Notes under the pieces: model-generated | Told to the model about the DNA's origin: nothing | Databases searched by the model: none | The model's input: the letters and a program-made list of their open reading frames with translations, nothing else | Assembly: GCA_001695645.1 (NCBI GenBank) | Contig: LVZN01000007.1 | Coordinates: 1 to 32,000, forward strand | DNA length: 32,000 bases | Direction: 5' to 3' | Origin: Erysipelotrichaceae bacterium MTC7 | Lineage (GTDB): Bacteria > Bacillota_I > Bacilli_A > Erysipelotrichales > Erysipelotrichaceae | Program-made: the position numbers and the translations under genes | Shown here: one piece after another, positions 1-29,842 of the stretch | How positions within the stretch are numbered: position 1 is the first letter of the stretch | How the letters are laid out: each line of letters starts with the position of its first letter

Positions 1-3000
1 TCCAATGTTAAGACTAGGTTGTTTGCACCGATTGTGTATTTATCTCCGTGCTCAATCACGTCTTTATCAATAACTTTGATTTGGATGGTTACTTTCGTTG
101 CTGGTTCTTCTTTTACTCTAAATACGGCAACGTAGTCACCTTTTACTTTTTCAAACGTTGTACTTTCTAATTGTACTGTTCCTGCACTCATATCTTTACG
201 TTTGAATGCTTCTGCTTGCGCTAGTCCAATTAGTTCATCGTTATCTTTGATTGCTTTGGCTTCATCAACAGTTAAAACGAGGTTGTTTGCACCGATGGTA
301 TATTTATCACCGTGTTCAATCACATCTTTGTCGATTACTTTGATTTTAACTGTTGCCTTCGTTGCTGGTTCTTCACCAACTTTGAATGTTGCAGTGTATT
401 CTTTTGCAGTTGCACTTGCTGCCACAAAATCTGTACTATCTAAAACAACCGTTCCTTCACTTAAATCACTTAAGTTCCATGCTTTTGCTTTTGCAAGTCC
501 AACAAGTTCATCGTTACTTGCGATAGCTTTTGCTTGATCAAGCGTTAGGATGATGTTATTTGCAACAAGTGTATACTTATCGCCTTCTTTAATTACATCA
601 TTATCCACAACTTTAGCAATCGCAGATACTTCATCTAATGGATCAGTGGCTGCTTTTGCTTTGACTACGACGTCGTATTCATTAACTTCAGCTTTGTATC
701 CACCATTGTCTTTTACCATTAAGTCAGCTGCAGCTACTTCATAACCCGTTGCAATGGCCCAGGCGCGAGCTCTTGTTTTTTCAAGAATTTCTGCATCTGT
801 ACCTTTTACATCATCTTTTAGGATGACATAGTTGTGAATGTCATAGGCATAGTCTTTACCGATGTATAAACCAACGGCAACAACTCTGCGTTTTATTGCG
901 GTATTGAAATCACTATCCGTTACCGTGTACTCAAGAATGTACATTCCTTTTTTACTTGTGTCTACAGTTCCAGAAACAATAACTTTGCTTGTTAAGTCAC
1001 CATCTTCTGCATCTTGGGCAAAGACTCCGTGTTTGTAATCGAAACTTGCACCAAGTGGAACTGACATAAAGGCAGGATCAACTGTTAGTATTGGAGCTTG
1101 TCCTTTTGTCACATTGACATTAACTGTTGCTTTTACACTTGGATCTGCATCCACTTTGAATGTTGTTTTGTATAAATCTACAGCATCTCTTACCGTATGT
1201 GAATCCAGGGAAACTGCTGTTTCTTGACGGGTCTGACGAATCCATCCTTTAGCACCTGTAAGTTCTTTTAATTTTGTTTTTGCATAGTTTGCATCATCTT
1301 GAATTTTCTTAGCTTCACCACGTGTAATCTCTGTGTGGTTTGCAGCGATGATGTAGTTATCAGTTGTAACAACTACGTCATAAGGAAGTACTTCAAAGGT
1401 TACTTTCTTGATAACGCCTTCATCTCCATCAATACAGAAGGTTACAGTGTAAACACCAGCTTCTGCTTTGAATCCACCTGTATCTTTTACTTTAATCGGT
1501 GCGTTGCTTCCATCTGTTGTTTTTGTCCCTTTTGCATTAGCTAGGCGAATGTAGTCTGCATCACTTACAACCAGTTTTGCATCATCATACCCCATGATGA
1601 CATCATTGGCTGTAATCTTGTATAACTCCGCCTTCACTGTAAGCTTCGTTGCTTGTGGGAACATAGCATCATGATACTTGGTTGCACTGACTGGGTTGAT
1701 ATTTCCTAATGCATCTTCTAAGAAGATTTGCACGGTATCATTTGCTTTTAGTGTTACGTTTGCAGGGAATGTGTAATTCCACGTTCCATTTGCATTCAGA
1801 ACACCTTCATTTGCCATTTTTGTTCCATTTACCGTAACCGTTAAACGTACTGGAGGATCATCATTATGTACACCATCAAGTGTCCATGTACCCTCTAAGT
1901 AGTTTCCATTTGCGTATAGCGTGTTACTTACGATAACCGGCAATGGAGGTGTTTTATCAATGGTTGTAACAACACCGGTTGTAATATCACTAGGCAATGC
2001 TTCATGTGTTCTTCCAGAATCAGGATCTTCCGTTCCACGCCAAGCGCGTAACACTTCGTATGTAGTTCCTGTTTGAATAAAGTGACCAACATCAAAGACA
2101 AAGATACCACCTTTTGCTGGTTCACCATAAATTGAAACACCCGCATGTCCATCACCCATTCCTACAGAACGAGCAACCACTTCACGTTTTGTTCCATCAG
2201 GTAATGTTTCCAGTAAGGTTACATATACTTCATCCGTCCATGCATCACGAATACCTGAAGTGATTCCTTCAGGAACGCCTACATGTCCATAAACATACTT
2301 ATCCGCATTGGTTGGTACGTAAAGTCCATTAACCACTGGACGTGCATTGTTTCCAGAGATTCGACTATACGCTTTCATTCCCATAGAACCAAATGTAGAC
2401 GTATTAAATTCACCTGGATGACTTGTACTTAGAATTTTACTAAAGTCTGCGTTGTTTAATTTAAAGTCAAGCACTGACCAACTCCGATATGGGTTGCCAT
2501 AGATACTTGTTCCTTTGTGCCAAACAGCTAAATCGGAATTCGTTGAAGTATAAGTTGATTGATCATTTACATCAAACACCAATCCACCAGTCTTATTACC
2601 TGCATCATAACGTGTATTTGCAAAATCGTAATACAGTGGATTATCATTGACGAAAACCACTTTTCGAACATTGAAAATCGCTTCATCGTCTGATTTGGTT
2701 TGTCCGCGAGCAACAAAGGTTGCTTGATCTGCTAAGGTAATATGTGCTTCTCCTGAACCATCAATATCTACGGCTGCTCCATAGTCAGCTTGAATGTTTA
2801 TCGATGAACCAAGTCCTGAAACATCAAATATTTGTCCTGATGACTTCCCAGATTTATATTGAATCCCTTGGTTTTTACCATTTGAACCAGGGTTTGCTGC
2901 AGTTCCATCACCAACGTTTAGAACCTTGATTTTCCCACCGCTTCTAACATAAAACTCATTGCTTTTTCCATAGAAACGCATCGCTGGAGCTTCTGATTTA

Positions 3001-4364
3001 GTTCCAACTTTCGAAATGTTTACTTCAGCGTTATCCGAGATATCGAAACGTTGATATCCAACCAGTCGTAAACGGAAAGTTGCTCCATAAGAGTCACTAC
3101 CTCCAAGACTTTGCACGTTCATTTTTGAACCGGCACCTGCAACAACAAACATTCCTCCGGTAATTTGTGAAATTACCCCAGGGAACGATTTTGTTCCATC
3201 CCCTTTACTGTTTACATCCAGTACAGCACCATCGGTGATTTTTACAAAAGAATCCCGAACGGGGTCGCCTTCATCATCCGTATCGCTTTCTGTTTCGTTA
3301 GCAGTCCCGGCAAAGGATACTACCGCATGGGAGTTCCCCGTACCATTTCCATTTGCTGAGGCTTTAATTTCTGTACCCGGATCTTTAATGTGTACTTGGA
3401 TCGAGTACTTCTTTCCTTCTTTCCCTAACCAAATGGCTGCATCCTCTTGCGAATGCAAGGTCATCTTTGAGGCTTTGTTTACATCCATTTTAATCATGGC
3501 ATTTTCACCAACAGGGTTCGCGTTAAAGATAACGTGTTGCGCTGTAACATTTACATTTGCACCATTGGTAATCGTAAATTCTTTTGCTACGAATACCCCT
3601 GCTGCTGAACTTTTCCCACCACTGTGCGCTCTGCTAGTTGTGGTCCATGTAATGTTACCAGTAAGTGTTATTTTACTTTCTGTTGCTTTAAATATATTGG
3701 CTGCCGTACTCCCTGTGTGTGAAAGGTTATGTAATGATACATGCCAATTGTTTGTATTTGCGTTACGATTCGTATCCGAATCCGAGTTGTCCGTATGCCG
3801 AATTAAGTAGGTACAACCTACATTCGCAACTTTGATTCCAACCAACCCTAAATTTGTTAGATTCGAAACACGAGCCAAAATAAATGCTTCATCTTTATCA
3901 TTTTGGAAATCCAACGTATAGTTATTTCCATTAATGACTAAGTTTCGATTCACCATCGGTAAGTCATTGTCATCATTCCCTGTTCTTGTGATGTTAGTTG
4001 TAAAATTAATTACACTAACACCGGAATTACTCATTGCTGAACGCAACTGATCCCAACTGCTAACATCAACTGAACTAGCTAACGTCCCTACCTGAGGTGC
4101 TACTTCTTGTTTCTGAGGTTTTTCTATTTCTCCCTCATCTACTTGTTCTGGTTCCTCTATTTCTTCTGGTTCTTGTTCTTCTTCAATCACTTCATTTTCG
4201 TCTACATCTTGATCGACTTCTTCAACGACTTCATCTGCATCTGCAGATAAAATGACATCACTGACTAACGAAGAAATTCCTAGTGAAACAAAGGTTAACA
4301 GAAAACATAAAACAACAATAAATAGTGTTTTCTGCTTTTCCCAGAAACTTTTTCTTTTTCTCAT
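1..4364 (-). CDS. Giant secreted surface adhesin, 5' part only (1454 codons; 3' end lies beyond the window start). Signal peptide, D/E-rich acidic linker, N/G/T-rich beta-helix-like region, DUF5011-type Ig-like domain, then ~88-aa tandem modules.
   Basis: Absent from the ORF track because the frame runs off the edge, so I translated it by hand. ATG at 4364 is preceded by AAAGGAGAGA (4371-4380). The product begins MRKRKSFWEKQKTLFIVVLCFLLTFVSLGISSLVSDVILSA/DADEVVEEVDQD... The frame was spot-checked open at ~3000, ~2150, ~1590 and 541-780. It contains APILTVDP..AQDAEDGDLT..GMYILEYTVTD and repeated GDKYTIGANNLVLTVDEAKAI modules. Confidence 0.85.
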   Translation of the reverse strand, partial: MRKRKSFWEKQKTLFIVVLCFLLTFVSLGISSLVSDVILSADADEVVEEVDQDVDENEVIEEEQEPEEIEEPEQVDEGEIEKPQKQEVAPQVGTLASSVDVSSWDQLRSAMSNSGVSVINFTTNITRTGNDDNDLPMVNRNLVINGNNYTLDFQNDKDEAFILARVSNLTNLGLVGIKVANVGCTYLIRHTDNSDSDTNRNANTNNWHVSLHNLSHTGSTAANIFKATESKITLTGNITWTTTSRAHSGGKSSAAGVFVAKEFTITNGANVNVTAQHVIFNANPVGENAMIKMDVNKASKMTLHSQEDAAIWLGKEGKKYSIQVHIKDPGTEIKASANGNGTGNSHAVVSFAGTANETESDTDDEGDPVRDSFVKITDGAVLDVNSKGDGTKSFPGVISQITGGMFVVAGAGSKMNVQSLGGSDSYGATFRLRLVGYQRFDISDNAEVNISKVGTKSEAPAMRFYGKSNEFYVRSGGKIKVLNVGDGTAANPGSNGKNQGIQYKSGKSSGQIFDVSGLGSSINIQADYGAAVDIDGSGEAHITLADQATFVARGQTKSDDEAIFNVRKVVFVNDNPLYYDFANTRYDAGNKTGGLVFDVNDQSTYTSTNSDLAVWHKGTSIYGNPYRSWSVLDFKLNNADFSKILSTSHPGEFNTSTFGSMGMKAYSRISGNNARPVVNGLYVPTNADKYVYGHVGVPEGITSGIRDAWTDEVYVTLLETLPDGTKREVVARSVGMGDGHAGVSIYGEPAKGGIFVFDVGHFIQTGTTYEVLRAWRGTEDPDSGRTHEALPSDITTGVVTTIDKTPPLPVIVSNTLYANGNYLEGTWTLDGVHNDDPPVRLTVTVNGTKMANEGVLNANGTWNYTFPANVTLKANDTVQIFLEDALGNINPVSATKYHDAMFPQATKLTVKAELYKITANDVIMGYDDAKLVVSDADYIRLANAKGTKTTDGSNAPIKVKDTGGFKAEAGVYTVTFCIDGDEGVIKKVTFEVLPYDVVVTTDNYIIAANHTEITRGEAKKIQDDANYAKTKLKELTGAKGWIRQTRQETAVSLDSHTVRDAVDLYKTTFKVDADPSVKATVNVNVTKGQAPILTVDPAFMSVPLGASFDYKHGVFAQDAEDGDLTSKVIVSGTVDTSKKGMYILEYTVTDSDFNTAIKRRVVAVGLYIGKDYAYDIHNYVILKDDVKGTDAEILEKTRARAWAIATGYEVAAADLMVKDNGGYKAEVNEYDVVVKAKAATDPLDEVSAIAKVVDNDVIKEGDKYTLVANNIILTLDQAKAIASNDELVGLAKAKAWNLSDLSEGTVVLDSTDFVAASATAKEYTATFKVGEEPATKATVKIKVIDKDVIEHGDKYTIGANNLVLTVDEAKAIKDNDELIGLAQAEAFKRKDMSAGTVQLESTTFEKVKGDYVAVFRVKEEPATKVTIQIKVIDKDVIEHGDKYTIGANNLVLTL
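7..640 (-). repeat. In-frame tandem coding repeats inside the adhesin gene, with periods of 264 and 273 nt (88 and 91 codons).
   Basis: GTTAAGACTAGGTTGTTTGCACCGAT at 7 recurs as GTTAAAACGAGGTTGTTTGCACCGAT at 271 and, more diverged, at 544. The first ~105 nt of copies 1 and 2 are roughly 85% identical by eye; the rest is more diverged. Confidence 0.8.
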
Positions 4365-4440
4365 ACAATTTCTCTCCTTTCATAAGTTTTCATTTTCAAA
4401 TCACACACTTGAAAACATAACTAATTTACGACAATAGTAA

Positions 4441-4467
4441 GATGTGCTTGAATCCTACCAGGTTCAT
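4441..4467 (-). promoter_or_regulatory. Possible internal ECF-type promoter in front of the adhesin gene (ATGAACCT-N-CATCTTAC).
   Basis: On the minus strand, ATGAACCT (4460-4467) sits directly after the stop of the upstream gene. The spacing from GAAC to CATC (4441-4444) is 17 nt. The heptamer and spacing are the same as in the candidate promoter at 12184-12210, but the -10 element is degenerate. Confidence 0.25.
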
Positions 4468-4469
4468 TT

Positions 4470-6917
4470 TTAGCGAAACTTTTTTGCTTTTTTTCGCCAT
4501 ACACCATATGTCCCTAAACATATGGAAAGTATCATGACAAAAACAACGTTCGCTTTATTCGATACATCACCAGCAGCAACACTTGCACTACTTGCTTGTG
4601 TGTTGCTAATTGAAGTACCATCGCTATTCTCTACTACGTGTAAATCGAAAGCTTTGTTGACTGTTACATGTACGGCAATTCGTTGTTGTTGTGTCTGCCC
4701 TATTTCATCCACAACACTTGCCGTAAATGCTAACCTATAGATTCCCCCTTCCTTTCCTACCTTTTGAATGGCAGCAAGTTGATTTGCATTTGCTTCAATG
4801 CTTGCTGCAACGACTTCATTTTGATCACCATCACAAACCGCAACTCCGGCAAATTGAATGGCTTGTGATTGTTGTAACTGCTTTGCCTCATCATATGTAA
4901 GTTCAAAGTCATGACCAGTTAAAACAAAATCCCCAATTTCATCAAAGATCGATGTGCTTTCTCCAAGCACAGTTACCTTGATTTTCTTGCTGACTTCCAC
5001 ATGGTCGACTTTGACAGTGTAAAGCAGTTCATATATGCCTCCTTGTTTGGAAACATTTTTGATGGTTTGCCACTGTGCTTCGTGAACGGTTGTTGCCTGA
5101 CTAGCACCAACAAACTCATGAATTTCACCTTGGCTGTTTCGATCCATCAAGAAGGCATGGACATTGGCATCCGCAATGATTTTTTGTTTGGTTAAACTTT
5201 GTACTTGTTCAAAGGTGTAGACAAGATCGTCTGCTCCAATAATGGCATTTGCTAGTTGATCCATGACACTATGCTTGTTGCTAATCAATACTTGTATTTC
5301 TTTTGTACAAGTTTTTCCATCTTGATTTTGAACGTCATAAGCAATTGTATAAATACCAATGTCACGAAATTCTGGATTTCCTTTAACTACGGTGTAGGTA
5401 ATTTGTTCATCACTTAGTTTGCGTGTTACCGGTGCAAGACCCGGCGTATCGCTAGCTTCTAACCAAGTCGCTTCTATTCGGTGTTTCAAACTATAATCGA
5501 TGTTGGGATTCCCCAATTCATAACGTTGCAGTGGTGCTTGTATTTCAGGTAAACCATGAACTTTTACCACTCGTGTAAACTCTGTGACATACCCTTTTTG
5601 ATCTTCGACTTTGTAAGCCACTTCATAGGTTCCTACGTTGTTGGTATTCACATTATTTTGGACAACTTCAACTTTGTCGATTAAGTTTTGTTGCTTTTCA
5701 TCATAGACTTGCATTCCCTGTAATGGATCAAAAGCATCACCAACATACATGTCCACTGTGTTTGCTTCAAACACTGGACCATCCCACCAAAGGATGGGTT
5801 GTTCAATGGTTCCAATAAACCAGAACGTATCGATGATGTGATAATCAATACAATAACTGTACGACGTTTGACTTGGATCTAACGTTAGTTCTATCTCTGT
5901 TACGTCCTGCTGCTCAATTTGCATCGGAATCGTCGTTCCACTTGGATCTTTTACAAGTGACTTGATGGTTACTTTCCCTGTCTTTTTATCACCAATGACA
6001 TGTTCCGGATTGGTATAACGTTGTCCTTCGTTGTTGTTTGGATCCAAATATGGCTCAGCATCCGAATAAAAACGTGCATAAATGGCCGCTTTCATATTTA
6101 CTAATGGAGAAAAGTCGACAATTTGATTATTGTTTAACCAGACTTGTGGTCGACTACCCGACACTTGGATACTTGCTAGTGGAGACACATCGCTAATCTT
6201 ATTGTTTCCCAGTCCCAAATAACTGATTTTTGTCAAACCAGAGAGTGGACGAATATCACTGATGTTATTGAAGTCTAAAGTTAAACGCTTCAAATCCGGA
6301 AAATTTGCTAAATGTGCAATGTTTTCTAATTTATTGTTTTGTAGATGCAAGGCATATCTCGTTAAACCTCCAGTTACTGGAAGTGTTTGTAAATCTGCAT
6401 CGGTAATGCCATTATTGTTAAGCATCAATTGCTCATCAAGTGCAGGAAAACGTTCCGCTGTAAACAACGACAAATCGTGAATCGCGTTAGTTCCTCGCTT
6501 CCAGTTATTGAACTCCATTGCACGTAAGTTTGGATACATGGCCTCACGCATCGGTTCTAAACTTTGAATGTTGTGGTCATTTAAATATAGCGTTTCAATG
6601 TTTGTCATATATGCAATTCCCGTTAAATCGCTAATGCGCTTACTTGGATCTGCGGTATTGTAACTAATTGTTCTAAGGTTTTTTAAATCGTCTGTACTAA
6701 AGTTTTCTGGTATTTCTGGGCGACTGACAAGATAGTTATAGAAATTCTCATCAGGAACAAGTTCACGTCCACGTTTATTGGTTTCTTGCGCTTGGACTTG
6801 GATATTTTCACTATTTGCTAGTTGATCCGCACTTGTTGATTGCATTAACCATGCAATGCACAAAAATGCACATAGAAAACAAATAAGTAACGTTTTGTTT
6901 TTATTTTGCTTGTTCAT
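4470..6917 (-). CDS. Internalin-like LRR surface protein with several Ig-like (DUF5011-type) domains and a C-terminal TM anchor.
   Basis: 815-aa ORF with RBS AAGGAGGT upstream and signal peptide ...WLMQSTSA/DQ. LRR units are visible (LxxLxLxxNxIxDxxPL, e.g. LTLDFNNISDIRPLSGLTKISYLGLGNNKISDVSPL). Ig-type motifs include VGDAFDPLQG..GTYEVAYKVEDQKG. The C-terminus is a hydrophobic helix followed by WRKKAKKFR. Confidence 0.85.
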   Translation of the reverse strand: MNKQNKNKTLLICFLCAFLCIAWLMQSTSADQLANSENIQVQAQETNKRGRELVPDENFYNYLVSRPEIPENFSTDDLKNLRTISYNTADPSKRISDLTGIAYMTNIETLYLNDHNIQSLEPMREAMYPNLRAMEFNNWKRGTNAIHDLSLFTAERFPALDEQLMLNNNGITDADLQTLPVTGGLTRYALHLQNNKLENIAHLANFPDLKRLTLDFNNISDIRPLSGLTKISYLGLGNNKISDVSPLASIQVSGSRPQVWLNNNQIVDFSPLVNMKAAIYARFYSDAEPYLDPNNNEGQRYTNPEHVIGDKKTGKVTIKSLVKDPSGTTIPMQIEQQDVTEIELTLDPSQTSYSYCIDYHIIDTFWFIGTIEQPILWWDGPVFEANTVDMYVGDAFDPLQGMQVYDEKQQNLIDKVEVVQNNVNTNNVGTYEVAYKVEDQKGYVTEFTRVVKVHGLPEIQAPLQRYELGNPNIDYSLKHRIEATWLEASDTPGLAPVTRKLSDEQITYTVVKGNPEFRDIGIYTIAYDVQNQDGKTCTKEIQVLISNKHSVMDQLANAIIGADDLVYTFEQVQSLTKQKIIADANVHAFLMDRNSQGEIHEFVGASQATTVHEAQWQTIKNVSKQGGIYELLYTVKVDHVEVSKKIKVTVLGESTSIFDEIGDFVLTGHDFELTYDEAKQLQQSQAIQFAGVAVCDGDQNEVVAASIEANANQLAAIQKVGKEGGIYRLAFTASVVDEIGQTQQQRIAVHVTVNKAFDLHVVENSDGTSISNTQASSASVAAGDVSNKANVVFVMILSICLGTYGVWRKKAKKFR

Positions 6918-8109
6918 GTTTACCTCCTTTCTTACGACGTCGATTCATGATAAACAAAACGACGAGTAACAAGGATACGATGAAAGGTATAGCACTTATC
7001 CCCAATCGAAATGGTAGTGAAACATCTGCTCTCATCTTCAATGAAGTAACAAAGTCATAAGAGAAAGTTCCCGCTGATGCAATGATTTCATCGTCATATA
7101 AAGTTAAGTGACTACCTTCTTTAATGTTATCTAAGCGATACGACACGCCTGGAGCTTTTGAAGGTCGCTCACGATCGGTAAAGAAGGCAAAGACAACCGT
7201 ATCTTCAACGATGCGACTAAGATCTAAAGACCATCCTGCAAATGCACGATTGTCCAGTTGTGGATCTTTGATGTCTTGGGCACTTTCCCCGTGATTGACA
7301 ATCCTCTGTTCATACAACGTGTCATCAATGTAGTACGACACCAAGTATTGTTTTAATCGATAGGTTGCATATACGTTTAAATCACTTGTAATTGGTTGTC
7401 CTTGATAGAACTTTGCAGTTCCATCGCTTTGTAAATTAAACCCAAGAAAGACGTGTCCTTCTTTTTGCAATCCATGTAAACTAAGACTTTTGTTGTGTTC
7501 CACATGATGCGTTTGTAATAACGTTGCACCATCATACACTTTTACTTGATGCATTTGGTTTGCACGAAATGCGAAATTTCCCTGGAATGCATGTTCGTAT
7601 GTTTCCGTTGCATCTCCGACCGTAATTCCTTGTGCTCGTACTTGCGTATCCACGCTTATTTTGTTTCGTGAAGAACCTGTTGTTGTAACATCTAGTTCAA
7701 TCACATGTTTTACATGATTTAGTTGCATCGATAATCCAGACTTGAGCAATGCTTGATATTCACTTTGCGTTGCGTTTTTTCCATCAATGCGAAGCACCCC
7801 TTGTGCATACGGCTTGAAGGCAACCCCTTCTTTTTCAAACACCCTTATTCGGGTATCTAAAGATCCTGAACGATTGGCAACTTGAATTTGCAATCGCACT
7901 GTGGAACCATAGGCAATTGATCCAGCACTGGAAAGTTCTTTTTCTTTTCCTGAGGTTTCAATAAGTTTTGCACTTGATGAAAGTTGTAAATCCAAATACG
8001 TTTCAGCAGCAACGACATGTTGTCTAAAGCCAAACAACATCATACTTATCATGGTGAGTATAAGTACGAGTTGTCCTAATGTTTTTTTACGTTTTTTATG
8101 ATTCGACAT
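6901..8109 (-). CDS. Secreted protein with a DUF11-like beta-sandwich, two Listeria-Bacteroides-type repeats and a C-terminal TM anchor.
   Basis: The likely start is ATG at 8109 (MSNHKKRKK...), with GGAG 11 nt upstream; the track start at 8136 looks like an extension. The signal peptide ends VVAA/ET. Motifs seen are GSTVRLQIQVANRSG, GHVFLGFNLQSDGT..VYATY and FAGWSLD. The C-terminus is hydrophobic followed by NRRRKKGGK. The gene overlaps the next gene by 17 nt. Confidence 0.75.
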   Translation of the reverse strand: MSNHKKRKKTLGQLVLILTMISMMLFGFRQHVVAAETYLDLQLSSSAKLIETSGKEKELSSAGSIAYGSTVRLQIQVANRSGSLDTRIRVFEKEGVAFKPYAQGVLRIDGKNATQSEYQALLKSGLSMQLNHVKHVIELDVTTTGSSRNKISVDTQVRAQGITVGDATETYEHAFQGNFAFRANQMHQVKVYDGATLLQTHHVEHNKSLSLHGLQKEGHVFLGFNLQSDGTAKFYQGQPITSDLNVYATYRLKQYLVSYYIDDTLYEQRIVNHGESAQDIKDPQLDNRAFAGWSLDLSRIVEDTVVFAFFTDRERPSKAPGVSYRLDNIKEGSHLTLYDDEIIASAGTFSYDFVTSLKMRADVSLPFRLGISAIPFIVSLLLVVLFIMNRRRKKGGKHEQAK

Positions 8110-8113
8110 TGGC

Positions 8114-9430
8114 TTATTGCTCCACTTGCACAACATACGAAATCATATTTCCCGAAACATCATAGATGGCTACATAAACTTCACCATGAAAGTCATGTTT
8201 GATTTTTCCATCTCTTGGGATTGGCATACGTGTTTCTTGATAGAGTACATACGATGTATCATAATCAATCCCTGATGCTCCATCTTTAAACTGTAAACTT
8301 AAATACCCGTCCGCATATCCAATCTCCAGCATCTCTGGTGCTTTGATATCAATGTTATCGATGGTTACATTACGTGTATCTTTATCGACTTGGATCTTAT
8401 ACGTTCCATTTTCACTAGCAACAAAAGATAAGACATCTTGATCAACTTCAAAATCAATGGCTTTCGCTTCTTTTGATACTTGAATATGGGAATGATCGAC
8501 TTTGTTTTTCAACTTCGCTTTTACTTCTACCTTTTTATTGGTTGGTTCTTGGTGATAACTAACGTCAATAATTTCTGCATCTTGTAGGTGCAAACTTTGA
8601 TACACGACATAGCTCGTGGTGGTTCCTAAACCTAGCACACCAACAATCGCTGCTTTTGAAAGATTGGAAAGTGTTTTCGATGCACCCACAGTCAATGGAA
8701 CAGCTGCTCCAATGGATGCTTTTCCCACATGGACCACCGAATCATAAATTTGCGTTGCTGCATTTGGTGACAATGGTTTTTGTTGCAACAATTCTTTAAA
8801 TATTTGAAAGGCAAAAGGACTAAATACAAAACTGAAGTAACTAAGTGGTGAATATCCACGTTCACTTAATCCTGGCTGAATGACTTTACGCACTCGTTTT
8901 AATCGCGTCTTCACCGTTCCTTCAGGTATTTTCATAATGTACGATATCTCTTTAACAGACAGTCCAACGTAATATTTCAACATACCCACTTCAAAGAATT
9001 TTTCTGGTAATTGATTTAGTTCGCTTTTGATTGCAGCATACACTTCTTTGCTTTCAACTTCGTGAACTTGATTGTTATCAACAACCACCATTTCTTCAAG
9101 ATTGGTGTCTTCTCCAAGTTGTACTTGGCGACTCCGCTTGCGATACAAGGTTTGTGAACTGTTGTAAGCAATTGTAAAAATCCAAGCGTGAAAACTCTTA
9201 GGATGTTTTAACATTTGTATATTTTTGTATACGCTTAAAAACGTTTCTTGTACCACTTCTTCTGCATCTGCTTGATTTTGCATCAATTTTAAACCAAAAT
9301 AATAAATTGGATTTTTGTAGAAATCGTAAATGGCATTAAACGCGTCTACATCACCGTCTTGAAAACGTTCGATGTAACTAACATCCAATTCTTTATGGTC
9401 CCTACTTTTTCCGTTTGTATCCACACTCAT
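8114..9430 (-). CDS. Sigma-70 family (ECF-like) sigma factor fused to a TM helix and a ~155-aa extracytoplasmic beta-sandwich region.
   Basis: Region 2 reads DAEEVVQETFLSVYKNIQMLKHPKSFHAWIFTIAYNSSQTLYRKR. Region 4 reads LPEKFFEVGMLKYYVGLSVKEISYIMKIPEGTVKTRLKRVRKVI. A hydrophobic segment AAIVGVLGLGTTTSYVVY follows, then beta-rich sequence containing NIDIKAPE and DGASGIDYD. A G-rich RBS (GGGGG) precedes the ATG at 9430. Confidence 0.85.
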   Translation of the reverse strand: MSVDTNGKSRDHKELDVSYIERFQDGDVDAFNAIYDFYKNPIYYFGLKLMQNQADAEEVVQETFLSVYKNIQMLKHPKSFHAWIFTIAYNSSQTLYRKRSRQVQLGEDTNLEEMVVVDNNQVHEVESKEVYAAIKSELNQLPEKFFEVGMLKYYVGLSVKEISYIMKIPEGTVKTRLKRVRKVIQPGLSERGYSPLSYFSFVFSPFAFQIFKELLQQKPLSPNAATQIYDSVVHVGKASIGAAVPLTVGASKTLSNLSKAAIVGVLGLGTTTSYVVYQSLHLQDAEIIDVSYHQEPTNKKVEVKAKLKNKVDHSHIQVSKEAKAIDFEVDQDVLSFVASENGTYKIQVDKDTRNVTIDNIDIKAPEMLEIGYADGYLSLQFKDGASGIDYDTSYVLYQETRMPIPRDGKIKHDFHGEVYVAIYDVSGNMISYVVQVEQ

Positions 9431-9475: not shown

Positions 9476-10045
9476 TTATTTGCCAATGACAAATAAACCC
9501 TTACTTATAATGTCACTACGTTTTACTGCTCCAAACATTCTTGAATCTCGTGAAACTCTGCGGTTATCACCACAAAGGAAATACTCATCTTCACCTAAAA
9601 CCAGTGGTCCAAAGTCACTGGTAAATTTTTCGATTCCATGGTTGGTTTGTTTACTTTTATAACGTTCATCGAGAAAGTATTCATCGACGACTTCTCCGTT
9701 TATATACAACATGTCATCACGGTATTGAATGGTTTCACCAGGCAAACCGATGATGCGTTTGGTAAGACTCTTTTGTTCCTCATGATCGTACGTTGTAACG
9801 ATATCGAAACGTTCTATGTGCCCAAGATAGCGACTTAAAATACCCGTCAAGCCCATTTCTCCATTTTCTAAGGTTGGATACATACTCGATCCTTCCACAT
9901 AGACAATACGCACAATGCAGGTTAAACAAACATACAAGGCCAAGGTCAATGAAAACACCAGACGCAACAATTTCAACATCTCGAGTTTCCATTTGCTTCT
10001 TTTTATGTCTTTTCGCAATTCCATTTGTCTATTTGATGGACGCAT
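9476..10045 (-). CDS. Type I signal peptidase (S26 family) with an intact Ser/Lys dyad.
   Basis: Conserved boxes are GSSMYPTL (Ser), KRIIGLPGE (Lys) and GDNRRVSRDSR. There is an N-terminal TM segment. The likely start is ATG at 10045 (MRPSNRQ...), with GAAGGTGGTGA upstream; the track start at 10096 is an extension. Confidence 0.9.
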   Translation of the reverse strand: MRPSNRQMELRKDIKRSKWKLEMLKLLRLVFSLTLALYVCLTCIVRIVYVEGSSMYPTLENGEMGLTGILSRYLGHIERFDIVTTYDHEEQKSLTKRIIGLPGETIQYRDDMLYINGEVVDEYFLDERYKSKQTNHGIEKFTSDFGPLVLGEDEYFLCGDNRRVSRDSRMFGAVKRSDIISKGLFVIGK

Positions 10046-10058
10046 ATATTCACCACCT

Positions 10059-10979
10059 TCACACACTGTAATGTTTCCTTCGCTTTCTATACACATAGAT
10101 TCCTGTAACGCCTAAAACGATGGCAAAAATGTGCCACGTTTTTTTACTACCCGTTGGAATGTTTTGTTTGTTTATGTCTTGATCATCAATTACATCTAGT
10201 TGAAGTTGGAAACAGAGCACACCGTTAGACATTGCTTTGTAGGCTCCTGCATCTTCTTTATGATTGATTTCTAGTTGTAAGACTGGTCCACTAGCTATAT
10301 GCGTACGTTGACCAGTGGCATCTTGGTATTCCCAAGTGATTGATTGATCATATGGCAATGTTTCTGTTTGTTTTGTTGGTACTTGTTGCCAAGTTCCATT
10401 TTTGTATTGATAGGTTTCATTTCGACTATAGGAGAGTGCGATTTCGATATGATCACCTATCTTTTTTTGCTGGTATAACATACCTTGTTGTAAGTTGCTT
10501 TCGTCGATTCTTGTCTGATTCAAAAGAATTTGAAGACAATTCCCCTCTTCCATGACGATTTGTTTTACATCCTTACCCAAAACGCTTGCATCAAGTTGTT
10601 TAACATACCATGCGGAGCGTTTTGCTGGAACTTGCATTTTTGCGAATTGTTGGCTTCCAGTAAAGATATCATTTCCCACAAATGTTACATCCTCCTGTAT
10701 CCACAATTCTTGTAGTTCGTTGTTTTGTTTAAATGCTTGTTCAGCAATTGCGCTTACTTTTTTTCCCTTATATGTTGCAGGTATTTTTACAACGGCTTCT
10801 TTGCCTACATAACGTGTGATTTGCACACTTCCATCTGCCAAATCTTGATAATAAAAGGTTTGATCTTGGTGGATGTTTCCAGTTGGCATATGACTGTTAA
10901 TCACTGTGCTTAGGACACAGACACATAGACAACTTAAGCAAAAAAGTTCTTTTAAAAATATCCTTCTCAGTTTATGCAT
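10059..10979 (-). CDS. BspA-type LRR (LRR_5-like) surface protein with a C-terminal TM anchor.
   Basis: Hydrophobic N-terminus. The sequence VKIPATYKGKKVSAIAEQAFKQNNELQELWIQEDVTFVGNDIF is typical of BspA-like repeats. The C-terminus is WHIFAIVLGVTGIYVYRKRRK. The ATG lies 2 nt after the stop of the upstream gene. Confidence 0.7.
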   Translation of the reverse strand: MHKLRRIFLKELFCLSCLCVCVLSTVINSHMPTGNIHQDQTFYYQDLADGSVQITRYVGKEAVVKIPATYKGKKVSAIAEQAFKQNNELQELWIQEDVTFVGNDIFTGSQQFAKMQVPAKRSAWYVKQLDASVLGKDVKQIVMEEGNCLQILLNQTRIDESNLQQGMLYQQKKIGDHIEIALSYSRNETYQYKNGTWQQVPTKQTETLPYDQSITWEYQDATGQRTHIASGPVLQLEINHKEDAGAYKAMSNGVLCFQLQLDVIDDQDINKQNIPTGSKKTWHIFAIVLGVTGIYVYRKRRKHYSV

Positions 10980-10981
10980 TT

Positions 10982-12148
10982 TTATGAATTGTTTTCTTCA
11001 CTTTGTGCTTTTAGATTTTCACCGATGTTCATCTTACCAGCGATCTTCGCACCTTTTTCAATATCAATGAATTTCGCATGGATATCGCCAAGAATCATCG
11101 CCGTACGTGAGAATGAAATCTCACTATCCGCAGTTACATTCCCTTCAATAGAACCGTGAATATCCATTGAGTTTGCTTGCATGTTCCCTTTTACGAACGT
11201 TTCACTGCCGACGTATAAGTCTTGTTCCACGTTTACGTTTCCTGCAATTTTTCCATTTTCTAAACGTAGTGATGCAGCACTAACATCACCTGTAATTAAT
11301 GCATCCTCTGCGATTTCGACGCGTTCCTTACAAATTAAGTTTCCACGAATTTCCCCTTTTACCAATAATGGTGTTGTGACCGTAACATTTCCATCAATCA
11401 CAATCCCTTTGGCAAATACTGAACTTTCTGTTGGCATAGCTGGAATGATTGGTTCCACTGGTGTTTCGTGTACTTCATTTCCTTCTAAGTATTCATCCAC
11501 GCGTTCTTTAAATTTCTCTTTGTATTTCTCGTCGTTAAATTTCATCATGTCTTGTTTTTCCTCAACTTCCGTTTGTTCTTGTTTAACTGTAGCAATCGTT
11601 TGTTTTTCTACACGATCATGTTCCTGTATATCCATGACTTTTACTGCAGTTGGTTGTTTATGTCGCATGGCTACACTTGGCGTGTATGCATTTGCTTGCA
11701 ACAACACTTGTTCCATATCGTTTTGTAAACCATAAATCTTTTCGCCTTCATTTTCGATAAACTCATTGATATATGACAACATTGCATTTGCTTCGTTTAA
11801 GTCATAATCATCAATAGGACGATCGTAAAGCGAAGCCAACATGGTATTGCAACCATCCAACGTTCTTGATAACTCCCTGTAACGAGTATCCAGTTGTTTG
11901 CTTTGCGCTAAGGCTAAGCTATCTTTATCAGTTGCAACCACTTGTTCCAAGTGCTTCCAATGTTTTGAGTCCAGCACATTTGCCAACTCCTCATAGGCAC
12001 TTTTTGACAACGCAAGTTCTTTTATATATTTTGACTTGAGTAATCGTCGTACCAATAAGGTCACAATAAACGTGAGTCCCAATAAAACTAGAAACGTAAC
12101 GATAAAAGGAATGGAAAATATTCCCACTGCTAGAATCAGATATTCCAT
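10982..12148 (-). CDS. Membrane-anchored bactofilin-domain protein: N-terminal TM, helical linker, C-terminal DUF583/bactofilin domain.
   Basis: ATG at 12148 (MEYLILAVG...) is preceded by AAGAAAGGAGAAACT. A ~30-residue hydrophobic stretch is followed by RRLLKSKYIK. The C-terminal ~125 aa, GIVIDGNVTV..VKGEIRGNLIC..ITGDVSA..IAGNVNV..VKGNMQA..IEGNVTA..ILGDIHA..IAGKMNIG, is the bactofilin beta-helix repeat pattern. Confidence 0.8.
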   Translation of the reverse strand: MEYLILAVGIFSIPFIVTFLVLLGLTFIVTLLVRRLLKSKYIKELALSKSAYEELANVLDSKHWKHLEQVVATDKDSLALAQSKQLDTRYRELSRTLDGCNTMLASLYDRPIDDYDLNEANAMLSYINEFIENEGEKIYGLQNDMEQVLLQANAYTPSVAMRHKQPTAVKVMDIQEHDRVEKQTIATVKQEQTEVEEKQDMMKFNDEKYKEKFKERVDEYLEGNEVHETPVEPIIPAMPTESSVFAKGIVIDGNVTVTTPLLVKGEIRGNLICKERVEIAEDALITGDVSAASLRLENGKIAGNVNVEQDLYVGSETFVKGNMQANSMDIHGSIEGNVTADSEISFSRTAMILGDIHAKFIDIEKGAKIAGKMNIGENLKAQSEENNS

Positions 12149-12183
12149 AGTTTCTCCTTTCTTCTTCGCACAATAATAAGTTA

Positions 12184-12210
12184 GTCGCACAAAACGACTT
12201 TTAGGTTCAC
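12184..12210 (-). promoter_or_regulatory. Candidate ECF-type promoter for the seven-gene operon: GTGAAC C-N16-CGAC.
   Basis: The minus strand reads AAAAAGTGAACCTAAAAGTCGTTTTGTGCGACTAAC. GAAC is at 12205-12208 and CGAC at 12184-12187, with a 17-nt spacer. The element lies ~36 nt upstream of the ATG at 12148. It matches the AAC-N16/17-CGT/CGAC architecture of group 4 sigma promoters. Confidence 0.4.
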
Positions 12211-17107: not shown

Positions 17108-18445
17108 CTATTTCTTAAGTTTCTTTTTCATTGCAAATAATGCAACAATCGATCCGATTACCGCGATCGATAATACACCACTAACACCCATTAATACAGG
17201 TTTCAATGCATCACTTTTAGCAAGTTTTTCATATTCACTCATAGTGATTGGTGCAGCATTTGAATATGGTTGAATTGTATTTGATGATTTTTCGTATTGG
17301 AATAGTTTCATCTCTCCATTTTCATCCATTAAGTAAACAAGCACGTAGTTTTTGAATTTACTATCTTTAAAGGTCCATCCTTCAACTTCCGTATCTTCCA
17401 CTTTTACTTTTGTAAATGTGAAACCTTCCATTTCTTTCATGTCTTCAGGAATAGTAACAATTGCTAGATTTTTCCCAGCAACAGCAATTGGAATATATAC
17501 AGAAGTCAATTTGCCTGATTTTTCATCATAAATATAATATCCACGTTCATTTTTACTATTTGTCATATACAGTAACGTGACTTTTAGCTTGTTGTTGCGA
17601 ATTGCCTGAACTTCTTGGTTATTAACTTTGATTTTAATTTCTTCAAAACCATCAAGTTTCTTTGCATTATCCAATGTTAAGATTCCATATTTATCCTTAG
17701 AATCACCAAGTGGTAAGTATACTGATGGCTTTTTTTCAACTTGAAAACGAATTGTATATGCTTTTGAACCACCATCATCCGCTTTTGTTGTAACAGTGAT
17801 GTTGTTTTCACCTTCTTTAAGCGTGTGTTTTCCAGTTCCTTCAACAGTTACTGTTGCATCTGTAGCTTCTGCTTTAACTTCTACACTTGTTTTATCACTT
17901 GTCAATTTTACAATGTAAGTATCTACACTTGGATCAAATCCTGGTTCCATTGTTCCTTCTGATACAGATAATGACTTCAAAGTCACATCTTTCTTTTCAT
18001 CCTTTGGTTCCTCAGTTGTCTGATTGTTATTTGTTTGATTGTTACTGCTTCCACCTGTATTCGTTCCTGGATTGCTTGTCGGTCTATTAACCGCATTAAC
18101 AGTTACACTTTTTGATAGATTTGTATCTCCCGAACCATCTTCATTAGAAACAGGACCTGAAGCTGTAACCGTTACAGGTCCAACATTTATTGGCGTAATC
18201 GTTACACTTTTTGATGATGATGCATCAGCCCAAGGTTCATATCCTCCCACTGTTGCATTCGTCGCAGAAACAGAAAAGGTTGCTGCAGTATCTGTTGAGA
18301 TAGTTACTGTAAAACTTTCTCCAACATATACTTGCCCAGTACTGGCACTTATGTTCAACCATTGAAAGTTTGCAATTGGTGGCTTTCCAAAAAATGAAGA
18401 AATTGCAAATGCAATGGGTATTACTTTTAAAAATATTCTATTCAT
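17108..18445 (-). CDS. Surface protein with an N-terminal Ig-like region, an N/T-rich linker, a cadherin-like beta-sandwich domain, an unassigned C-terminal domain and a TM anchor.
   Basis: It has a signal peptide. LKSLSVSEGTMEPGFDPSVDTYIVKL..TVEGTG..LKEGENNITVTTKADDGGSKAYTIRF matches the clostridial cadherin-like beta-sandwich pattern. The C-terminus is hydrophobic followed by MKKKLKK. AAGGAGAGAAT precedes the ATG, 11 nt after the upstream stop. Confidence 0.75.
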   Translation of the reverse strand: MNRIFLKVIPIAFAISSFFGKPPIANFQWLNISASTGQVYVGESFTVTISTDTAATFSVSATNATVGGYEPWADASSSKSVTITPINVGPVTVTASGPVSNEDGSGDTNLSKSVTVNAVNRPTSNPGTNTGGSSNNQTNNNQTTEEPKDEKKDVTLKSLSVSEGTMEPGFDPSVDTYIVKLTSDKTSVEVKAEATDATVTVEGTGKHTLKEGENNITVTTKADDGGSKAYTIRFQVEKKPSVYLPLGDSKDKYGILTLDNAKKLDGFEEIKIKVNNQEVQAIRNNKLKVTLLYMTNSKNERGYYIYDEKSGKLTSVYIPIAVAGKNLAIVTIPEDMKEMEGFTFTKVKVEDTEVEGWTFKDSKFKNYVLVYLMDENGEMKLFQYEKSSNTIQPYSNAAPITMSEYEKLAKSDALKPVLMGVSGVLSIAVIGSIVALFAMKKKLKK

Positions 18446-18456
18446 ATTCTCTCCTT

Positions 18457-20079
18457 TTATTTCCCTAAAATAATATTTTTTACACTCATGAAATCTGCAG
18501 GAGAGACTTTACCATCTCCATTTACATCTGCTTGTTTCAGTTTATCTCCAGTTAAAACATATTTATTAATTATATGATTTTTCACACTCATATAATCAGA
18601 TGGAGAAACTTTACCATCTAGATTCACATCACCCTTTTTGTATGTTGGAACAACAATTCCGCCTCCGGTACTTACTTTGCTTATATAATCGGCGTGAATA
18701 AAAGCATAATCACGAGATGATGTATATTCAGGAGAATTTGCTAATGAAGTACGAGCAGAATTTAGCGGATAATCAGCAGCTATTTTATACCACGAACCGG
18801 ATGTTCCTATAATAATTACAGGGAAATTCACTGTATTTTTTGTATTATATAAAACTGTTGAAGAAGTAGTTGCTTGATTTCTAACATTGACCACATCAGT
18901 GCTATTCTTTACACCTAAGGCATATCTAGAATCTTCTTTAACGTGTGGATATGTATTAGCAATTGACCATGCATGGTTTGCTGCTTTCTCACCCCAATAC
19001 GGATCAGAAGCATACTTCACATTCATACCACTTTGTTTGTCACCCAAGTGCGCTCCAAAATTACGCCAATCTCTAGGATTCGCATAACCACTAACATAAC
19101 TTTTCGCATGTTGATTCACACAGTCTAGGATTGATGCATAGGATGCAGCTTGATTTGGATCGCTGTCATAAGCAGCATGTCCAAACAAGTTATTTCTTGT
19201 TTTTGCATAATTACTTGTTCCCCAAGCACTTTCGTTGATTGCAACACCAAACATCAACAAGGCATTTGTTCCATAAGTGTTTTGGGCTTTAATAAATGCT
19301 GCCCCTTGATTTTTTAATGCAGAAGCAGTGTTACCCAATTGTGCATTCGTGAATGCATTAAAAGCAGCATCGTTAATTCCTGTCGTACTTCTATGACTTA
19401 AGAACTGAAAATAATTGTAATAAGGTTTTCCATTGTTAATTGAATTATTGTAGTTTCCTGCACGATAGTCCGTTAACATCTTTTGGTAATCTGTCCAAAA
19501 GTAGTGACCATCATAGCTATAGTATTTCACGCCTTCTTGCATATTTGAAACACCACCACCAACTTTATTGGCATAGGTTACATTTTCTGCCATAAGATTG
19601 AGTGATGTATAGTGATATAAAATTCCTTTTTCCTTACGGTAAAAACTTGTCGATTTTACAGACGTAAGCGGCATTACTTGCACATATTTTTTATTGACAC
19701 GAATTTTCGCCCCAGACATTACAGCAATAACGTCATCACCTTCGTATTTTACAAAGGCAGCATCCTCAATATAGTAAGCACTTAGGTAGCCAGCTACTCC
19801 TGTATAATAATCTGTAAACGGTGTCGTGTCCGCGGTATATGTAAAGCGCACTAAGTCTAGTGATCCCGCCGTAGCTCCTGCGTTTTCTAATAACGGTGAA
19901 ACTTTTGTTGTTGGCTTAGCACAAACGACATTACCATCACGGTCAATAAATGTTAAACACTCTTCTTCTGCAATGTTTTCTTTCAACTTTGCTTCGTCTT
20001 TTATCACGTACATGAACGACAAACAAAGCAAACTGAATACAAATCCAAGCGTTGTAATTTTCTTTAAAACATCTTTCAT
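18457..20079 (-). CDS. Cell-wall hydrolase: GH73 N-acetylglucosaminidase, an SH3-like domain and a C-terminal two-repeat dockerin.
   Basis: The likely start is ATG at 20079 (MKDVLKK...) after GAGGGAG. The GH73 core reads FIKAQNTYGTNALLMFGVAINESAWGTSNYAKTRNNLFG. The SH3-like segment reads VNVRNQATTSSTVLYN..GSWYKI. The dockerin EF-hand pair reads GDVNLDGKVSPSDYMSVKNHII and ADVNGDGKVSPADFMSVKNIILGK. Confidence 0.85.
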   Translation of the reverse strand: MKDVLKKITTLGFVFSLLCLSFMYVIKDEAKLKENIAEEECLTFIDRDGNVVCAKPTTKVSPLLENAGATAGSLDLVRFTYTADTTPFTDYYTGVAGYLSAYYIEDAAFVKYEGDDVIAVMSGAKIRVNKKYVQVMPLTSVKSTSFYRKEKGILYHYTSLNLMAENVTYANKVGGGVSNMQEGVKYYSYDGHYFWTDYQKMLTDYRAGNYNNSINNGKPYYNYFQFLSHRSTTGINDAAFNAFTNAQLGNTASALKNQGAAFIKAQNTYGTNALLMFGVAINESAWGTSNYAKTRNNLFGHAAYDSDPNQAASYASILDCVNQHAKSYVSGYANPRDWRNFGAHLGDKQSGMNVKYASDPYWGEKAANHAWSIANTYPHVKEDSRYALGVKNSTDVVNVRNQATTSSTVLYNTKNTVNFPVIIIGTSGSWYKIAADYPLNSARTSLANSPEYTSSRDYAFIHADYISKVSTGGGIVVPTYKKGDVNLDGKVSPSDYMSVKNHIINKYVLTGDKLKQADVNGDGKVSPADFMSVKNIILGK

Positions 20080-20102
20080 TACTACTCCCTCGCTTCCCTG
20101 CA

Positions 20103-20111
20103 ATTATACCA
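20103..20111 (-). promoter_or_regulatory. Extended -10 promoter (TGGTATAAT) for the autolysin and cadherin-like gene pair.
   Basis: The minus strand reads GAGTTTTTTTTGGTATAATTGCAGG. The -35 is poor (TATTAA). The position excludes the track's TTG start at 20103. Confidence 0.5.
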
Positions 20112-22801: not shown

Positions 22802-22802
22802 A

Positions 22803-24059: not shown

Positions 24060-24067
24060 ATTACTCC

Positions 24068-25180: not shown

Positions 25181-25185
25181 ATACA

Positions 25186-26025: not shown

Positions 26026-26070
26026 CTTGCATTCTCCTTACATAACAAAAGAATCTTTTACAAGATTCTT

Positions 26071-27099: not shown

Positions 27100-27101
27100 A
27101 A

Positions 27102-27677: not shown

Positions 27678-27687
27678 CTTTTCTTCC

Positions 27688-29798: not shown

Positions 29799-29814
29799 AC
29801 CATCATTATAAAGT

Positions 29815-29842
29815 AAAAAACATGACATACATCATGTTTTTT
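29815..29842 (-). terminator. Terminator-like hairpin with a perfect 11-bp AT-rich stem, between the membrane-protein gene and the MerR-MTase gene.
   Basis: The minus strand reads AAAAAACATGA-TGTATG-TCATGTTTTTT. The T-run forms part of the stem. TATAAT (29805-29810) follows directly. Confidence 0.5.

Follow-up and report, generated by a model that had tools for sequence, protein, structure and literature searches.

A single gene of Erysipelotrichaceae bacterium MTC7 encodes an extracytoplasmic function (ECF) sigma factor that continues, in the same polypeptide, through a predicted transmembrane (TM) helix into two immunoglobulin-like (Ig-like) domains. The gene lies at positions 8114–9430 of the minus strand in a 32,000-nt stretch of the genome (GenBank assembly GCA_001695645.1, contig LVZN01000007.1, positions 1–32,000), which is hereafter called the window and has a G+C content of 36%. 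Its product of 438 amino acids (aa) is GenBank entry OCN05545.1, annotated as "hypothetical protein". The architecture of the protein, its conservation, its topology signal, its gene neighbourhood, and a pair of ECF-type promoters were computed in silico. The same single-chain layout is kept in about 90 protein clusters, a gene for a surface protein follows in all nine related loci compared, and the promoter motif stands both before the operon of the sigma gene and before a giant gene for an adhesin-like protein. The fusion may act as a membrane-held sigma factor that controls its own operon and is activated through regulated proteolysis.

Architecture and conservation of the sigma fusion

Judging by its domain and fold matches, the segment of residues 1–190 is a canonical ECF (group 4) sigma factor. 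Pfam recognised regions 2 and 4 (Table 1), separated by ~30 residues, while no match to Sigma70_r3 or r1 was obtained in the fusion protein at E ≤ 0.1. In the AlphaFold2 (AF2) model, built from a 78-sequence alignment, the sigma part was predicted with high confidence (predicted local distance difference test, pLDDT, ~90–98) and showed two helical bundles alone. Region 2 contains the conserved motifs DAEEVVQETF and FHAW, and the core-binding and DNA-binding residues of regions 2.2, 2.4, and 4.2 are invariant across homologues. The protein passed the NCBIfam model TIGR02937 (sigma70-ECF) with 88 bits vs. a cut-off of 43, and none of the NCBIfam equivalog models. The top NCBIfam match of the sigma part was SigW, with scores below the thresholds of the SigW equivalog models (118 bits vs. 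209 for NF007223 and 104 bits vs. 243 for TIGR02948). The best Foldseek match in the PDB was also SigW of Bacillus subtilis (5wur, 32% identity), followed by AlgU and sigma-E. The closest ECF sigma factors outside the fusion family were ~29% identical.

The preliminary description of this gene, made from the DNA letters, gave the correct coordinates and left the minus strand unstated. It had placed sigma regions 2 and 4 in residues ~1–190 and the sigma factor, the tether, and an external Ig-like region in one chain. Pfam and NCBIfam bear out the first point (residues ~17–190), and the second agrees with the layout that is conserved in ~90 clusters. A start codon (ATG) is preceded, at a distance of 8 nt, by the ribosome-binding site (RBS) GGGGG.

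An exhaustive HMMER search with a profile of residues 186–438 against 1.84 billion representatives yielded 590 matches at E ≤ 1e-3, of which 205 reached E ≤ 1e-10. Among the top 150 matches (clusters at 50% identity), about 90 were proteins of 400–485 aa with the same layout. Matches to the whole profile begin at residue ~176–183, just past region 4, and most of the shorter matches that were inspected were gene calls lacking the N-terminus. A single reading frame is maintained in full-length homologues with identities of 99% down to 33%; a frameshift or stop codon splitting the gene into a sigma factor and an anti-sigma factor, named earlier as what would refute the fusion, was rejected, as ~90 clusters retain one open reading frame (ORF). 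All named members of the family belong to the Erysipelotrichales: MTC7, Breznakia spp., and Coprobacillaceae metagenome-assembled genomes (MAGs). Scanning of the genome collection with the pattern DAEE[VI]VQ[ED] revealed 78 ordinary ECF sigma factors and two family members (Breznakia sp. PF5-3 and a Coprobacillaceae MAG). A word-indexed profile search with the alignment of the Ig region gave no match, not even to its own family, whereas a slightly longer alignment in HMMER gave the 590 matches; negative results of the indexed search are therefore unreliable for short divergent domains.

Among the nearest ECF sigma factors outside the family are proteins of 490–690 aa (P0010–P0014), mostly metagenomic and one labelled Eubacterium sp. 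They have a hydrophobic "PFF"-type motif right after region 4, a TM segment, and then unrelated large extracellular domains. Within this sigma clade, ECF sigma factors fused to membrane-spanning segments may be far more widespread.

The linker between region 4 and the membrane has a strongly conserved motif, G-[YF]-x-P-x-x-Y-F-S-F-x-x-x-P-F, at residues 192–206, directly after region 4. Two linker helices were predicted at residues 203–217 and 222–238 (AF2 pLDDT 63–75), followed by a poorly predicted stretch with many Ala, Gly, Ser, and Thr residues (pLDDT < 50 for residues 237–281). No Pfam anti-sigma family, including FecR, matched the whole fusion protein or any of 41 linker sequences, and no anti-sigma chain of the PDB was matched by the linker profile. 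The number of cysteines in the 438-aa protein is zero; hence it has no ZAS motif (HxxxCxxC). The operon was previously stated to have no separate anti-sigma gene, and our data agree: none was recognisable among the neighbouring genes of the operon by Pfam and gene packing. The sigma gene follows the type I signal peptidase gene lepB after 45 nt, the downstream genes overlap or have 4-nt gaps, and the small minus-strand ORFs of the operon are all nested within larger genes. The bactofilin-domain protein with a TM segment and a 306-aa surface protein, both encoded in the same operon, were considered as hidden anti-sigma factors and rejected, since both are missing from all related loci and neither has an anti-sigma domain. 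The aromatic motif together with the two helices may be a minimal anti-sigma element acting in cis or an element of the membrane interface.

The hydrophobic segment of the MTC7 protein, AAIVGVLGLGTTTSYVVY, occupies residues 260–277. For the whole family, 90 representatives of 400–485 aa were scanned between the sigma domain and the Ig region for the 19-residue window of highest hydrophobicity. The median Kyte–Doolittle value of this window was 1.94, with 75 of the 90 representatives at ≥ 1.6, and its median start was at residue ~243. The uncharged run of the segment had a median length of 18 residues, and the net charge of the flanks across the family was +1.4 on the N-terminal and −1.0 on the C-terminal side. 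Owing to this hydropathy and the positive-inside charge bias, the segment fits a single N-in/C-out TM helix. Whether the segment spans the membrane had been named in the preliminary description as a check to be made, and the prediction for the family is that it does, once. Small residues that destabilise helices are abundant in the TM segment and just before it, a trait of known S2P substrates.

The folded Ig region begins ~9 residues after the TM segment. When residues 283–438 were modelled alone, two seven-strand beta-sandwiches were obtained (pLDDT 94). An Ig-like C-terminal region had been noticed before; the fold is supported by AF2 and Foldseek, and the single domain assumed at that time proved to be two domains in tandem. 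Foldseek retrieved generic tandem Ig/Fn3 pairs alone (sDscam Ig1-2, NCAM2, myomesin, and CbhA Fn3; E ≥ 1e-4). A sequence search of the PDB with the Ig profile gave a marginal repeat match to the Ig-like tandem of MpAFP RII (E 0.001), in which no single stretch was significant. Pfam DUF7743 (PF24893) did not match the fusion protein of the window at E ≤ 0.1. The profile of residues 186–438, however, matches giant proteins of 1,000–3,400 aa (including P0104, P0105, and P0168) up to 32 times each, and Pfam names these repeats DUF7743; at least one of the giants also has leucine-rich repeats (LRRs). From these matches, the Ig module appears to belong to a family of repeats that is characteristic of the large surface proteins of this bacterial group. 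Ig domain 2 is probably related to the DUF7743 repeats, a kinship that is indirect and runs via the family profile.

Three further observations concern the Ig module. BiPBP_C-like matches overlap the DUF7743 repeat in the giant proteins. An Ig repeat common to the neighbouring giants was considered and rejected for the loci examined, as hmmsearch of six-frame ORFs from the window and five related loci matched the sigma fusions only. A few proteins of ~205–215 aa (P0164 and P0165) look truly stand-alone; they consist of a ~20-residue cytoplasmic head, a TM segment, and the same two Ig domains, without a sigma domain.

Gene neighbourhood and candidate promoters

Nine independent related loci were compared (L001, L003, L005, L006, L007, L009, L010, L089, and L090). 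A surface-protein gene follows the sigma fusion in all nine, with a gap of 2–20 nt or an overlap of a few bases at the 3' end. In eight of them, this gene at position +1 encodes a protein of 245–423 aa; five of these proteins were aligned with the partner encoded in the window and are homologous to it. The distant locus L090 has an LRR protein directly at +1. Genes for LRR/Ig and giant surface proteins come after the partner wherever the contig extends far enough. The conserved +1 partner gene had been overlooked in the preliminary description. Its true start in the window is probably the ATG at 8109. With a cytoplasmic tail of only ~14 residues, the partner is unable to hold a classical cytoplasmic anti-sigma domain; it may be a co-sensor. 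The giant gene of the window starts at 4364 (MRKRKSFWEK...), and its counterpart in Breznakia encodes 4841 aa with a Pectate_lyase_5 domain.

Genes on the 5' side of the sigma fusion differ in every locus, and the bactofilin, 306-aa protein, and signal peptidase genes upstream of it were found in the MTC7 locus only, being missing from the related loci. The 5' end of lepB overlaps the preceding gene by 38 nt. By analogy, the lepB product is a candidate site-1 protease, as for RsiV, or a dedicated secretion helper. The bactofilin gene probably starts at ATG 12148 (RBS AGGAG), because the listed GTG at 12190 overlaps the −10 element of the upstream promoter. The bactofilin protein has a long coiled or acidic middle region. 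The surface proteins of the operon encoded at 4470–6917, 6901–8136, and 10059–10979 end in a hydrophobic helix and a K/R-rich tail and have no LPXTG; these three proteins appear to be membrane-anchored and not sortase-linked.

A motif common to the regions upstream of the sigma genes was found by eye and then by pattern. It consists of GAAC or AAAC, exactly 17 nt, CGTC or CGAC, and then T-A/T-A-C, and is of the classical ECF type, like the promoters of SigW, SigM, SigX, and SigV. The pattern GAAC-N17-CRWCTWAC occurs in two copies in the 32-kb window vs. 0.03 expected, and none of 100 shuffles reached two, although these statistics are optimistic because the pattern was partly refined on the sites and then counted. 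Both copies are intergenic and lie on the operon strand. The site upstream of the giant gene was also detected in L001 and L009 (Breznakia) and in L006 (metagenomic), as ATGAAC-N17-CGTCTTAC. That the motif recurs in several genomes at the same two positions is a stronger argument than the window statistics. As the motif stands before both its own operon and the giant gene, positive autoregulation through a promoter of the AAC (−35)/CGT (−10) type and a small regulon of surface proteins are suggested.

Table 1. Position of the features discussed, in window coordinates, and promoter motifs of the related loci.
Feature	Position	Strand	Evidence or remark
Sigma-TM-2xIg fusion gene	8114..9430	(-)	438 aa + stop; ATG start
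Sigma region 2, residues 37-101	9128..9322	(-)	Pfam PF04542 (Sigma70_r2), E 8.6e-13; invariant columns
Sigma region 4 helix-turn-helix, residues 133-182	8885..9034	(-)	Pfam PF08281 (Sigma70_r4_2), E 6.8e-9
Cytoplasmic linker, residues 186-258	8657..8875	(-)	Conserved motif and two predicted helices
Predicted single TM segment, residues 259-278, KAAIVGVLGLGTTTSYVVYQ	8597..8656	(-)	Hydropathy and flank charges
Extracytoplasmic Ig-like domain 1, residues ~283-362	8345..8584	(-)	AF2 pLDDT 94-97, seven strands; Foldseek tandem Ig
Extracytoplasmic Ig-like domain 2, residues ~363-438	8117..8344	(-)	Motifs NIDxxAP, SGIDY, YDxxGN
Candidate ECF-type promoter P1, GAACCTAAAAGTCGTTTTGTGCGACTAAC	12180..12208	(-)	~30 nt 5' of the first operon gene (bactofilin ATG 12148)
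Candidate ECF-type promoter P2, GAACCTGGTAGGATTCAAGCACATCTTAC	4437..4465	(-)	Gap between the LRR gene and the giant gene
Motif upstream of the sigma operon, L001/L009			GTGAAC-N17-CGTCATAC
Motif upstream of the sigma operon, L006			TGAAAC-N17-CGTCTTAC
Motif upstream of the sigma operon, L005			ATGAAC-N17-CGACTAAT
Motif upstream of the sigma operon, L089			ATGAAC-N17-CGACTAAT
+1 partner gene, 411 aa	6901..8136	(-)	Signal peptide, variable N-terminal domain, two Flg_new-like repeats, C-terminal TM and K/R tail
LRR + Bact_surface_Ig-like surface protein, 815 aa	4470..6917	(-)	C-terminal TM anchor; probable regulon member
Giant surface-protein gene, 5' part	3..4364	(-)	At least 1454 codons, runs off the window start; probable regulon member
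Type I signal peptidase (lepB)	9476..10096	(-)	Pfam Peptidase_S26, E 4e-39; TIGR02227
306-aa surface protein	10059..10979	(-)	Signal peptide and C-terminal TM anchor, weak BspA-type LRR match; same operon
Bactofilin-domain protein	10982..12148	(-)	N-terminal membrane anchor; Pfam Bactofilin, E 9e-26; first gene after P1

Three further gene regions of the window lie on the same strand. A glucosaminidase (cell-wall hydrolase) with a C-terminal type I dockerin, which is unusual for Erysipelotrichaceae, is encoded at 17108–20103, next to a gene for a protein with a cadherin-like beta-sandwich. The region 21926–28566 is a cell-envelope polysaccharide cluster with LicD, a GT4 glycosyltransferase, and the complete dTDP-rhamnose pathway (rmlA, rmlC, rmlB, and rmlD). 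A 395-aa protein encoded at 28641–29828 is a MerR-type helix-turn-helix fused to a class I S-adenosylmethionine methyltransferase domain.

Proposed mode of action and alternative explanations

We give roughly an even chance to the explanation that the fusion is an autoregulated, membrane-held ECF sigma factor activated through regulated proteolytic release, in the manner of IutY. The sigma domain (residues 1–190) and the conserved ~65-residue linker would be cytoplasmic, the helix rich in Gly, Ala, Ser, and Thr would span the membrane, and the two Ig domains would lie outside. In the resting state, the sigma factor would be kept at the membrane, probably inactive, by the tether alone or by the juxtamembrane helices acting in cis. 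A surface cue would be sensed by the Ig domains, perhaps with the +1 partner protein. The fusion would then be cut first on the outer side of the membrane, where a type I signal peptidase may act as it does on RsiV, and next within the membrane by a protease of the S2P/RasP type. The freed sigma factor would direct RNA polymerase to promoters of the GAAC-N17-CGTCTTAC type, located before its own operon and the giant adhesin gene, and more LRR/Ig cell-surface protein would be made. We infer that the tethered sigma factor is inactive and that proteolysis releases it, and likewise which proteases act and what the signal is. Proteolytic release is the best-supported model: IutY, the sole characterised fused ECF sigma factor, needs Prc and then RseP, and ECF48, ECF52, and ECF53 are predicted to follow the same course.

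Several observations weigh against this explanation. The hydrophobic segment is weak in the MTC7 protein itself, with a 19-residue Kyte–Doolittle mean of 1.18. No similarity between the linker and an anti-sigma domain was detected, and the linker helices reached an AF2 pLDDT of only 63–75. A homologue of S2P/RasP was not found in the window, and no protease site or cleavage product was observed. The signal peptidase gene adjoins the sigma gene in MTC7 only and not in the other loci; as the adjacency is not conserved, it serves as a lead. In the promoters of the distant loci L007, L003, and L010, the −10 element is degenerate (AGTC, AATC, and AAAC), with the −35 element and its distance retained; the upstream region of the distant L090 has no match to the ECF motif, and the optimistic window statistics count on the same side.

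It is conceivable that the sigma factor is never released and that, while anchored, it binds core RNA polymerase via the ~65-residue flexible linker and transcribes the adjacent surface-protein genes. The Ig domains would then modulate it by dimerisation or partner binding and not by proteolysis, and transcription would be coupled to co-translational secretion of the adhesins. We regard this as unlikely, although it is the main alternative; the preliminary description had named both release by proteolysis and transcription from the membrane. The linker contains no anti-sigma domain that could be detected; it is long and in its distal half predicted to be disordered (residues 237–281), so that a holoenzyme is sterically conceivable; the proposed targets are all membrane or secreted proteins encoded beside the sigma gene, and no protease is conserved in the neighbourhood. 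However, no sigma factor is known to be active while membrane-anchored, and the dependence of IutY on proteolysis points the other way. The strongly conserved aromatic motif after region 4 suggests more than a passive tether, and a TM segment rich in small residues is generally typical of intramembrane-protease substrates. The fuller form of this idea, in which a holoenzyme is formed at the membrane, transcription, translation, and secretion of the giant adhesins are coupled, and the Ig domains and the +1 partner gate the activity, seems to us rather unlikely; if anchored action were true, a sigma subunit would for the first time have been shown to be a membrane-bound one-component system. We also consider it quite unlikely that the C-terminal part is no sensor at all, being a device for localisation (e.g., at export sites) or stabilisation or being removed constitutively, with regulation purely transcriptional through positive autoregulation or another regulator. 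Such a role would agree with the generic Ig folds and adhesin stalk-type DUF7743 repeats that the Ig domains match, without any ligand-binding family, with the proteins that carry the TM segment and two Ig domains without a sigma domain, and with a sigma-70-like promoter in place of the ECF motif upstream of the distant L090. Both Ig domains, however, are well conserved over ~90 clusters, down to ~30% identity, and the co-occurring, translationally coupled gene for an extracellular partner argues for a specific interaction outside the cell.

The +1 protein itself could be the real regulator. Acting outside the cell or at the membrane as an inhibitor or co-receptor, it would bind the Ig domains and protect the fusion from site-1 cleavage. 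We see this as a refinement of proteolytic release, with the partner functioning as an anti-sigma factor from outside, and assign it a low probability. Anti-sigma genes usually lie at +1 relative to the ECF sigma gene, and here the partner occupies this position, with the short gap or overlap described above, wherever it is present (eight loci); nearly all of the protein lies outside the cell, and its anchor sits in the membrane that also holds the fusion. On the other hand, its signal peptide looks cleavable and its cytoplasmic tail is short, so it has no cytoplasmic anti-sigma domain, it could equally be the first product of the regulon, and its place in L090 is taken by an LRR protein. Finally, the fusion could be a sequencing artefact, created from an ordinary pair of sigma and anti-sigma genes by a frameshift or the loss of a stop codon. 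The low TM hydrophobicity of the MTC7 sequence is the sole weak point that would fit this, and we find the idea hardly credible: a 99% identical copy is present in independent assemblies, the layout in one ORF is common to ~90 divergent cluster representatives, and the linker shows neither a break resembling a start codon or RBS nor an anti-sigma domain.

Relation to known systems and significance

The preliminary description regarded single-chain sigma factors tethered by a TM segment as poorly characterised. This needs correction, since precedents exist, both experimental (IutY) and bioinformatic (ECF48, ECF52, ECF53, and ECF263). IutY of Pseudomonas putida (ECF243) is a sigma/anti-sigma hybrid that was experimentally shown to be freed by Prc and then RseP (PMC8999054; PMC5411451). 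Like the MTC7 fusion, it is one chain with an N-terminal ECF sigma factor, a single TM segment, and a C-terminal extracytoplasmic domain, with no separate anti-sigma factor. Unlike the MTC7 fusion, IutY has a FecR-type anti-sigma/periplasmic domain, receives its signal through a TonB-dependent outer-membrane receptor, belongs to a Gram-negative bacterium, and has targets in iron uptake; the MTC7 protein has no FecR or other anti-sigma domain, carries two Ig-like domains, comes from a Firmicutes host, and has adhesin-like putative targets.

The groups ECF52 (SCO4117), ECF48, ECF53, and ECF263 have been described bioinformatically as having long C-terminal extensions with TM helices (5–7 in ECF263), extracytoplasmic domains, and predicted proteolytic activation. 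These actinobacterial groups share with the MTC7 fusion the TM segment, the extracytoplasmic extension, and the lack of a separate anti-sigma factor. In their extensions, region 4 is followed by a ZAS domain, the number of TM helices ranges from one to seven, and the modules are Pro-rich or bind carbohydrates; the MTC7 protein, from another phylum, has no cysteine, a single TM segment, and Ig domains in tandem. As far as its domain content goes, the fusion family is outside the defining features of the known fused ECF groups, having no FecR, no ZAS, a single TM segment, another ectodomain, and another phylum.

In Firmicutes, ECF anti-sigma factors are removed by a site-1 protease and then by RasP, and site-1 cleavage of RsiV is carried out by signal peptidase (PMC6066255). 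The likeness of the MTC7 fusion to the SigW/RsiW and SigV/RsiV systems of B. subtilis lies in its sigma domain, closest to SigW, in a similar promoter type (GAAC ... CGTC), and, for RsiV, in the signal peptidase gene that adjoins the sigma gene in MTC7. In those systems, unlike in the MTC7 fusion, the sigma factor and a class I anti-sigma factor are separate proteins. A cytoplasmic DNA-targeting domain, one TM segment, and an external sensor are also combined in a single chain in ToxR, CadC, and TcpP. They are the model for a sigma factor that works while anchored, but by analogy only, as ToxR, CadC, and TcpP are winged-helix activators that recruit the sigma-70 holoenzyme and not sigma subunits.

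No published description of the fusion family was found in the literature, where Breznakia appears in microbiome surveys only and nothing was found for DUF7743 or MTC7; the members of the family carry no annotation beyond "RNA polymerase sigma factor" or "hypothetical". Single-chain membrane-spanning ECF sigma factors are already known. The architecture alone is unlikely to surprise a specialist, but with no recognisable anti-sigma domain, a close linkage to giant adhesin genes, and a compact promoter pair, the family is a good system for asking whether tethering alone controls a sigma factor. A fused Gram-positive ECF sigma factor without an anti-sigma domain offers a test both for a minimal anti-sigma module of two helices and ~40 residues and for the activity of a membrane-bound sigma factor. 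A transmembrane sigma switch made of one gene, together with a defined orthogonal promoter, could possibly be used in synthetic biology. The Erysipelotrichales are common in the gut, including the insect gut, and their surface biology is almost unstudied. In these bacteria, a compact linked switch of sensor, sigma factor, and promoter pair appears to control giant adhesin-like proteins with LRR and Ig domains, which points to control over the timing of adhesin display.

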